A stretch of DNA of 64,000 nt, taken from a virus. Lineage: Duplodnaviria; Heunggongvirae; Uroviricota; Caudoviricetes. Each line of letters begins with the position of its first letter. Positions within the stretch are counted from its first letter, which is position 1. The position numbers were made by a program, and so were the translations under genes. This document shows, piece after piece, positions 26,074-26,982 of this stretch. The DNA lies in IMG/VR virus record IMGVR_UViG_2585427757_000006; one strand, given 5' to 3'. The notes below the pieces were generated by a model. That model was not told the DNA's origin, did not search any database, and worked only from the letters and a program-made list of their open reading frames with translations.

Positions 26074-26982
26074 ATGATTGGTAAGTTGTCTGATTCTTTG
26101 ATTGAAAATAAATACAACGAATTTAGAGAAGAAATATCTTTACTTTTTGACTATTTAAATCAGATAAATGATACAACAAAGAAAAATATAAAACGTCTTC
26201 TTAAAGAAGTGGAGTATGCACAAAATCCAGATACTATTATTAATATTAATGAAACTATTAAGATTAAGTGTGGCACAACGTTAGCTCGCCATTTATGTTC
26301 AAACCCATATACAGGTTCAACATTAGAGATAGGTAACAGCGCCATTGATTTAGAAGAAAAGATAAGATTGTGTAATACTTTGAAAAATAAACAATATCAG
26401 TGGGTTATTACTGAAGCCTATGAGTTACTGGAAGACTATATTGAGGCAATATATGTCTATACTGTATGTGTTCGAAATGATTTATGGTCCTCAAGTGATT
26501 TTGGTAAGGTTGAAGATGATGAAATTGGGAAAAGGGAAGTTTATTACAGATTATTAAAAGCAAAAAGTAACCCATCGAAAAAAATAACTAAAATTTTCAG
26601 AAATAAAATACCTGGCTTCAAAGAGATAGAAACAAACAACAAGATTGGCAAAAACTATCGCTTTAACATCAAGCTAATTGAACTACTAAGACATACAATA
26701 GTACACAATAGTGGACGATTCAATGATACAGAAAAATTTATAAATAAGGTTTTAGATGAATCTGAAATAAACGGTAAGAAAAGAGTTATTGGAGAAAGAG
26801 CTGTTAGAAGTTACATTACTAAAGTGCAAGAAGATGATATTGTGATGCTCTTAGAAAGACCATCTGAAATTTTAGGTTCTTTTGGTGGGTATTTTAACAG
26901 AGCAAAATTTTTACTAAGTGATATTTTAGAATACTCACTAATCATTAAAGAAGAACTAAAATCATATCTAGGCAATCATTAA
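26074..26982 (+). CDS. AT-rich hypothetical protein (302 aa) with an Rx4H (HEPN-like) motif; possible Abi-type cargo gene
   Basis: Very low GC, Lys/Asn-rich; LLRHTIVHNSGRF fits Rx4-6H; own terminator directly downstream. Confidence 0.5.
   Translation: MIGKLSDSLIENKYNEFREEISLLFDYLNQINDTTKKNIKRLLKEVEYAQNPDTIININETIKIKCGTTLARHLCSNPYTGSTLEIGNSAIDLEEKIRLCNTLKNKQYQWVITEAYELLEDYIEAIYVYTVCVRNDLWSSSDFGKVEDDEIGKREVYYRLLKAKSNPSKKITKIFRNKIPGFKEIETNNKIGKNYRFNIKLIELLRHTIVHNSGRFNDTEKFINKVLDESEINGKKRVIGERAVRSYITKVQEDDIVMLLERPSEILGSFGGYFNRAKFLLSDILEYSLIIKEELKSYLGNH

Follow-up and report, generated by a model that had tools for sequence, protein, structure and literature searches.

The window analysed here, a stretch of 64,000 nt, carries on its plus strand an open reading frame (ORF; 26074..26982) for a protein of 302 amino acids (aa), a predicted stand-alone RNase of the HEPN superfamily belonging to an unnamed family (PHROG 35492). 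The ORF starts with ATG, and 5 nt before this codon lies a Shine-Dalgarno-like sequence, AGAGG (26064-26068). As a preliminary description of the locus had remarked, the gene is very AT-rich: its GC content is 0.292 against 0.462 for the full window, and in segments of 400 nt it amounts to 0.28-0.31 over the gene and 0.40-0.53 on either side. The Lys-, Asn- and Ile-rich composition ascribed to the protein is likewise borne out (I 11.3%, K 10.3%, L 10.3%, E 9.9% and N 8.3%). Since full-length homologues occur in ~450 clusters at 50% identity, 26074-26982 is no chance ORF. It is preceded by a glutaredoxin gene (grx; 25655-25900) and followed by a cluster of tRNA genes, tRNA-Ser(UGA), Thr(UGU), Tyr(GUA) and Asn(GUU) (27161..27718), which serves here as context only. 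Both neighbours are on the minus strand and the ORF is on the plus strand, so that it is divergent from grx and convergent with the tRNA genes. The idea of a plus-strand gene among minus-strand neighbours therefore holds for these two, but not beyond them, since 24890-25426 and 23155-23541 are plus-strand as well.

On reading the sequence, the divergent glutaredoxin gene and the ORF are separated by an AT-rich intergenic region of 173 nt (25901..26073, plus strand), which presumably holds the promoter of the 302-aa gene. A sigma-70 scan of the plus strand upstream of the ORF gave no match reaching the threshold, and the promoter is therefore proposed without a position. A search upstream of the ORF in the window for repeats like those of type III antitoxins, whether tandem or direct, found none. 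On the other side of the gene, 4 nt past the stop codon, lies a G+C-rich hairpin (26986..27006; AAAGGGGC-TTCG-GCCCCTTT as read on the minus strand) with an 8-bp stem, five pairs of which are G-C, and a 4-nt loop. It is likely a terminator shared by the ORF and the convergent tRNA operon: it most likely ends the tRNA operon, and it may also serve the ORF. The hairpin itself had been recognised before, with slightly different coordinates (26990-27012), as a strong bidirectional terminator; this wording is too generous, since the terminator scan scores the hairpin on the minus strand only, where the T-run sits, and its tail on the plus strand reads GGATTTTG. Between the hairpin and tRNA-Ser there is, in addition, a near-perfect inverted repeat (27081-27158) with 20-nt arms, 95% complementary and 38 nt apart, whose right arm stops 2 nt short of the tRNA-Ser gene and which has no T-run.

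At 98% identity the region matches 'Escherichia phage CMS-2020a', and it shares synteny with the phages Cyrano and SSU5, which identifies the window as part of an SSU5-like phage-plasmid of E. coli. Within these elements the gene is accessory, mobile cargo with a fast turnover. In PLSDB it is present on 58 plasmids, all non-mobilizable (among those listed, ~108-126 kb in size and hosted by E. coli, Klebsiella and Citrobacter), compared with at least 666 plasmids that possess an SSU5-type DNA ligase at >=80% identity. Complete E. coli genomes contain it in 30 of 5,426 cases, plasmid-borne every time, and the records listed annotate it as 'hypothetical protein'. In phage Cyrano the slot is empty, and in CP054387 it is taken by a 637-aa SASA/DUF1737/DUF6645 protein instead. 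Turnover also affects the gene where it is retained: two E. coli elements whose CobT, repressor, integrase and ligase are 97.7-99.7% identical have family proteins with only 56% identity. The tRNA genes next to the slot comprise the sets {Ser, Thr, Tyr, Asn}, {Ser, Asn} or {Asn} in elements with the gene, and {Ser, Thr, Asn} or {Ser, Thr, Tyr, Asn} in elements without it.

This pattern bears on one explanation of the gene, namely that its product is an RNase in the service of the phage itself, which might process the transcripts of the adjacent tRNA genes, help takeover by breaking down host RNA, or eliminate an RNA that forms part of the host's immunity, and which would not protect against other phages. 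HEPN enzymes indeed include RNA-processing nucleases such as Las1, and in the phage-plasmids that carry it the gene always occupies the same slot, convergent with the tRNA cluster and ~100-200 nt away from it. We nevertheless consider a phage-serving role unlikely, because less than ~10% of SSU5-like elements have the gene, because Cyrano and CP054387 have the tRNA cluster but lack the gene, and tRNA content varies independently of it, and because a housekeeping function would not produce such divergent alleles beside nearly identical flanking genes.

Other genes come and go in the same region. In a Citrobacter plasmid (NZ_CP056836.1) the glutaredoxin gene has a YafO-family toxin gene on its left, the HEPN-like gene is preceded by a TolA-like gene, and an arsRDAB arsenic-resistance operon is found just past tRNA-Asn; these enlarged contents mark the slot region as a general cargo hotspot. 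In CP054387.1 the 637-aa gene (1346-3259 of the extracted locus L044, minus strand), which encodes DUF1737, SASA (sialate O-acetylesterase-like) and DUF6645 parts, is located between the integrase gene and tRNA-Ser, where it replaces the glutaredoxin gene, the HEPN-like gene and a 178-aa ORF; it may be a conversion gene for the modification of surface polysaccharides. In the window, this 178-aa ORF (24890-25426, plus strand, GTG start) has the integrase gene on one side and the glutaredoxin gene on the other, and it matches nothing in Pfam or PADLOC. A hypothetical gene is annotated at its position in Cyrano. As the ORF is missing in the element at locus L045 and its stretch holds the 637-aa gene in CP054387, it can be regarded as another cargo gene of the hotspot. 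In the tRNA cluster itself, a G+C-rich spacer of 224 nt (27248-27471), for which neither Rfam nor ARAGORN gave a match, separates tRNA-Ser from tRNA-Thr. The length of this spacer differs among elements (8 nt in Cyrano, 195 nt in L045, 490 nt in CP054387 and 668 nt in L052), which makes it a second variable site inside the tRNA cluster. Elsewhere in the window, a 396-aa ORF (32644-33834, plus strand) has, as judged by eye from its translation, a signal-peptide-like N-terminus and repeats of Sel1/TPR-type appearance.

The family to which the 302-aa protein belongs extends far beyond phage-plasmids. An exhaustive HMMER profile search of 1.84 billion cluster representatives recovered 450 clusters at E<=1e-3 and 350 at E<=1e-10, with relatives of ~290 aa; those among the matches listed are mostly 280-320 aa long and aligned end to end. 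Only by such an exhaustive search does the family become visible, as word-indexed protein searches returned just 8-9 relatives, even with profiles. PHROG 35492, a group without known function, matches residues 1-302 with its 302-position profile at E=3.1e-211. The genomic loci come from Beta-, Gamma- and Deltaproteobacteria, Campylobacterota, Bacteroidota, Treponema and Nitrospira; 19 viral contigs of IMG/VR have a family member, about half of them not SSU5-like, and the majority of members reside on contigs of bacterial genome assemblies. This last point likewise weighs against an RNase that serves the phage.

Searches of sequence databases for known relatives gave little. With the single protein, nothing above threshold was obtained in Pfam, PADLOC or PDB, and the same was true of Pfam, NCBIfam and PDB when an alignment of 139 members was used. 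No model of PADLOC-DB 2.0.0, which lists the PD-T7 and PD-T4 systems, matches the protein at E<=10, and no description of the gene was found in the literature. Three weak resemblances were set aside. A match of residues 20-60 to phrog_4452, an 'anti-restriction nuclease' (E=0.0027), was dismissed as coiled-coil noise in the long N-terminal helix. Matches to the halogenase CmlS (PDB 3i3l residues 365-435, E=0.029; NF033113 in 8 members) stem from a conserved EAYExFEDxxxxxY...FW stretch at query residues ~114-140 and were judged not meaningful. Finally, matches to TrmL (TIGR00185 in 7 members) stem from a K-K-x-x-P-x-S-I-L stretch at query residues ~160-175; phmmer with E. coli TrmL gave E>=0.01 and only a short 'G-x-P-x-SIL'-like resemblance.

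Conservation within the family is concentrated on few positions. In the alignment of 139 family sequences, whose mean column identity is 24%, only E117, R206 and H211 are invariant. Next in conservation are V210 (0.99), N105 and W110 (both 0.98), and G214, Y127 and W138 (all 0.97), followed by H207 (0.96), Q107 (0.93) and E120 (0.90); the few departures seen at H207 are to N. R206 (26689-26691) and H211 (26704-26706) belong to the sequence LLRHTIVH (residues 204-211) and delimit an Rx4H motif, R206-H207-T208-I209-V210-H211, encoded by 26689..26706 on the plus strand, and the pattern R-[H/N]-x-I-V-H was found in nearly all full-length representatives inspected. The preliminary description had pointed to this motif as a HEPN signature short enough to occur by chance. 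Chance can now be set aside, since R206 and H211 are invariant where the mean column identity is so low, and Rx4H is the most constrained feature of the family. E117, whose codon is 26422-26424, is a candidate for the acidic residue of HEPN helix 2. According to the alignment and the structural model it lies in the most conserved stretch of the long helix 93-133, residues 105-120 (NKQYQWVITEAYELLE; 26386..26433, plus strand). Conservation peaks in this helix and in helix 195-215, while the N-terminal 92 residues and the C-terminal third are the most variable parts.

Structure prediction gained much from the depth of the alignment. The AlphaFold2 model computed from 7 sequences was mediocre (pLDDT 72.8), whereas the template-free model from 139 sequences reached a pLDDT of 94.2 and a pTM of 0.90; a shallower independent model yields the same class of structural matches. 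By DSSP, the chain of the 139-sequence model begins with a 50-residue helix, a beta-hairpin (69-91), the long helix 93-133 and several short helices, continues with helix 195-212, the C-terminal end of which bears the Rx4H motif, with a loop (213-218) and with helix 219-229, and finishes with a beta element (248-257) and helix 276-300. The model is a helical up-down bundle resembling solved HEPN domains, with Rx4H closing core helix 3 just before a loop (the numbering of the helices being our own assignment). A Foldseek search of the model against the PDB gave nothing at E<=0.001; the HepT/MNT toxins 5yep and 7ae2 are among the best structural matches. Of the two results that the preliminary description had named as refutations, no HEPN-like fold in the prediction and a motif that homologues fail to conserve, neither was obtained.

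The HEPN superfamily has been characterised by an Rx4-6H motif located where core helix 3 ends and the next loop begins, and by a residue after the R that is usually N, D or H; many of its families also conserve an acidic residue in helix 2, and DUF3644 belongs to the superfamily (PMC3710099). The 302-aa protein agrees with this description in four respects: the site of the motif, H207, E117 as a candidate for the acidic residue, and a sub-threshold similarity to DUF3644 in Pfam, with E=2.9 for the query (chance level) and 0.0065 for the best member, recurring in 3 members. The sequence around E117 is E-x2-E, not the usual Ex3[K/R]. Taken together, the protein very probably belongs to the HEPN superfamily. 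Membership in any named HEPN or Abi family, by contrast, is not supported. Similarity to HEPN_Apea of Pfam is sub-threshold and confined to 2 of the 139 members (E=0.0055 at best), Abi families are absent from the 25 most recurrent Pfam matches listed for these members, and hhalign of the family with the single pEK499_p136 sequence (PF18736) aligned only a 17-residue motif, at a probability of 0.3%, an uninformative outcome. The earlier designation as HEPN/Abi-like is therefore retained for its first half, on account of the signature, but not for the second, as neither Abi_2 nor any other named HEPN/Abi model matches. What emerges is an undescribed family inside the HEPN superfamily for which Pfam, NCBIfam and PADLOC have no model.

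A HEPN-like fold need not imply an enzyme, and the protein could instead be a helical bundle with a structural, regulatory or ligand-binding function, whose conserved Arg, His and Glu serve binding. Precedents exist, as MtlR proteins are HEPN-like and non-catalytic, and so are the substrate-binding domains of nucleotidyltransferases. Such non-catalytic HEPN lineages, however, have lost Rx4-6H wholly or partly (PMC3710099), whereas in the present family the R, the H and the acidic residue are invariant and the polar residue is conserved; we hold a non-nuclease function to be very doubtful.

The family can be compared with HEPN proteins of known function. Among anti-phage effectors encoded by a single gene, solo HEPN RNases have lately become a major class, HepS, DARNA and ApeA all having been characterised in 2025-2026; DARNA, ApeA and PD-T4-2 are single-protein HEPN anti-phage systems of E. 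coli. DARNA (PD-T7-3), which is switched on by ssDNA bound by phage SSB, differs from the 302-aa protein in its length of 456 aa and in the combination of an N-terminal HEPN domain (R117-H122) with a Pds5-like C-terminal domain. ApeA possesses a beta-rich N-terminal domain of ~300 aa, and its Pfam model gives only the two sub-threshold matches mentioned above. HepS, a 'HEPN solo' defence protein of the Salmonella prophage Gifsy-1 (PDB 9OIJ/9OIK), forms a tetramer; once the tail-tip protein J has opened it, it cleaves tRNA-Thr, Ile and Ser (PMC13043305). The minimal HEPN proteins of the HepT/MNT and HI0074 type (5yep, 7ae2, 1jog, 1ylm, 1wwp, 2hsb) are proteins of 120-150 aa paired with a nucleotidyltransferase antitoxin, whereas the 302-aa protein has double their length, lacks a neighbour of this kind and shows only 5-14% identity to them in structural alignments. 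Similarly, no Pfam or PADLOC model of Abi_2 (AbiD/AbiF, PF07751), the C-terminal domain of AbiA, AbiJ, AbiU2 or AbiV matches the protein, which also differs from Abi proteins in lacking RNA-antitoxin-like repeats upstream and a reverse-transcriptase or other fused domain. Membership in HepS, DARNA, ApeA, PD-T4-2, Abi_2, AbiJ/U2/V, HepT or pEK499_p136 is not detectable, and the architecture is different: a long N-terminal helix and a beta-hairpin precede the core, the motif is placed two-thirds along the 302-aa chain, and an alpha/beta extension follows at the C-terminus.

In the loci examined, the gene stands alone. No conserved neighbour gene of >=60 aa was found across 38 genomic loci, and no conserved small ORF of 20-90 aa within 450 nt of the family genes; with upstream repeats absent from the window as well, the hypothesis of a partner gene was rejected. 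The GC content of the gene is below that of its flanks in 35 of 36 loci, the mean gap being 12.6 points. According to crude longest-ORF calls (loci L002-L041), 33 of 37 upstream neighbours share the orientation of the family gene, and their products differ from locus to locus; the upstream gap is often <130 nt, and the downstream neighbour is co-oriented in just 20 of 38 loci. The family gene may thus tend to stand last in operons of varied content. The upstream genes that could be identified encode a type IIG restriction-modification enzyme, an FRG, an HNH or a NERD-ATPase protein, or an integrase. Within two genes of family members we found PDC-S15, a type IV restriction enzyme, PD-Lambda-1, PD-T7-5, PDC-S13, Avs4 and ToxN, together with a mad3-like protein (L033), Bro-N, a P2 tail protein and a transposase, while many other neighbours are ordinary metabolic genes. 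Restriction-modification genes, other defence genes or integrase genes are thus often found next to the family gene, and as a raw listing these neighbours suggest defence islands and mobile elements. In one case, a Campylobacterales MAG (L021, 164-3420), the start codon of the family gene overlaps the stop codon of a type IIG restriction-modification gene (2542 vs 2545), which resembles the way in which the HEPN nucleases PrrC and ApeA are embedded in restriction-modification operons.

The solitary position of the gene is also central to the possibility that it encodes an addiction toxin, which would stabilise the plasmid-state prophage by post-segregational killing and be held in check by an antitoxin of a kind that escapes recognition (for example a small RNA, a very short protein, or covalent modification through a distant gene). 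A low-copy plasmid would gain from such a module, AbiF-type HEPN proteins use RNA antitoxins, and HepT/MNT toxins rank, as stated, among the best structural matches of the model. However, neither an MNT-type partner nor any of the conserved neighbours, small ORFs or upstream repeats searched for accompanies the gene, and the family occurs mainly as a lone gene on bacterial assembly contigs, so that we regard addiction as quite improbable.

Proximity to tRNA genes, the other striking trait of the locus, is not a family trait. A tRNA gene occurs within 6 kb in only 3 of 40 genomic loci, and in none within 1 kb of the gene, which again speaks against a phage-serving RNase. Given this and the independent variation of tRNA content in the phage-plasmids, tRNA linkage was rejected as a property of the family. 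The placement beside a tRNA cluster, correct for the window, characterises the phage-plasmid slot.

The interpretation we favour, with a confidence slightly above even, is that of a stand-alone HEPN RNase acting as a trigger-activated effector of abortive infection or superinfection exclusion. From genomic context and by analogy, we infer that the protein works as an effector in the manner of the solo HEPN defence proteins HepS, DARNA and ApeA; RNase activity, RNA substrate, activation by a trigger and an anti-phage role are all extended to it on these grounds, whereas the computations themselves establish the gene, its family, the conserved motif, the predicted fold, the missing partner gene, and the mobility and allelic turnover. 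The helical bundle would be the catalytic core. One of its helices ends with R206, H207 and H211, and together with E117 on the neighbouring long helix these residues would make up a metal-independent site for RNA cleavage, to which both subunits of a homodimer would probably contribute and which would leave products with 2',3'-cyclic phosphate ends. As accessory cargo between the glutaredoxin gene and the tRNA cluster of an SSU5-like phage-plasmid, the gene would be driven by its own promoter while the element resides in the cell as a plasmid, and the protein would be kept inactive, probably in the form of an auto-inhibited oligomer. When a rival phage infects the cell, one of its components would activate the protein, with the consequence that cellular RNA is cleaved; to judge by HepS, DARNA, ApeA and PrrC, the anticodon loops of tRNAs would be the likeliest target. 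Translation would halt and the infection abort, which would protect sister cells carrying the element. Surfaces for sensing or oligomerisation are likely to be provided by residues 1-92, which comprise the variable N-terminal helix and the hairpin, and by residues 216-302.

A more specific scheme would couple an anticodon nuclease to the adjacent tRNA genes, with the Ser, Thr, Tyr and Asn tRNAs of the element being cleavage-resistant versions. On firing of the nuclease, or in the lytic cycle, specific host tRNAs would be depleted and the element's own tRNAs would sustain its translation. If true, this would constitute a nuclease-plus-tRNA module that tells self from rival phages. We regard it as highly improbable, and as a family-wide arrangement it is argued against by the independent tRNA content of the phage-plasmids and the lack of nearby tRNA genes in the genomic members.

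Under the favoured reading as a solo HEPN defence gene, as under any other, the family is large (at least 450 sequence clusters), unannotated and present in clinically relevant phage-plasmids, although another HEPN family as such would not surprise the specialist. If its members are not concerned with defence, they still form a well-defined, uncharacterised enzyme family with three obvious residues for mutation. If they are, a new sensor-plus-effector architecture would join the solo HEPN class, and screens of the DefenseFinder type would overlook a cargo gene of SSU5-like phage-plasmids in clinical E. coli and Klebsiella. At 302 aa, the protein would then offer a compact subject for the study of how a HEPN site stays silent and is triggered.
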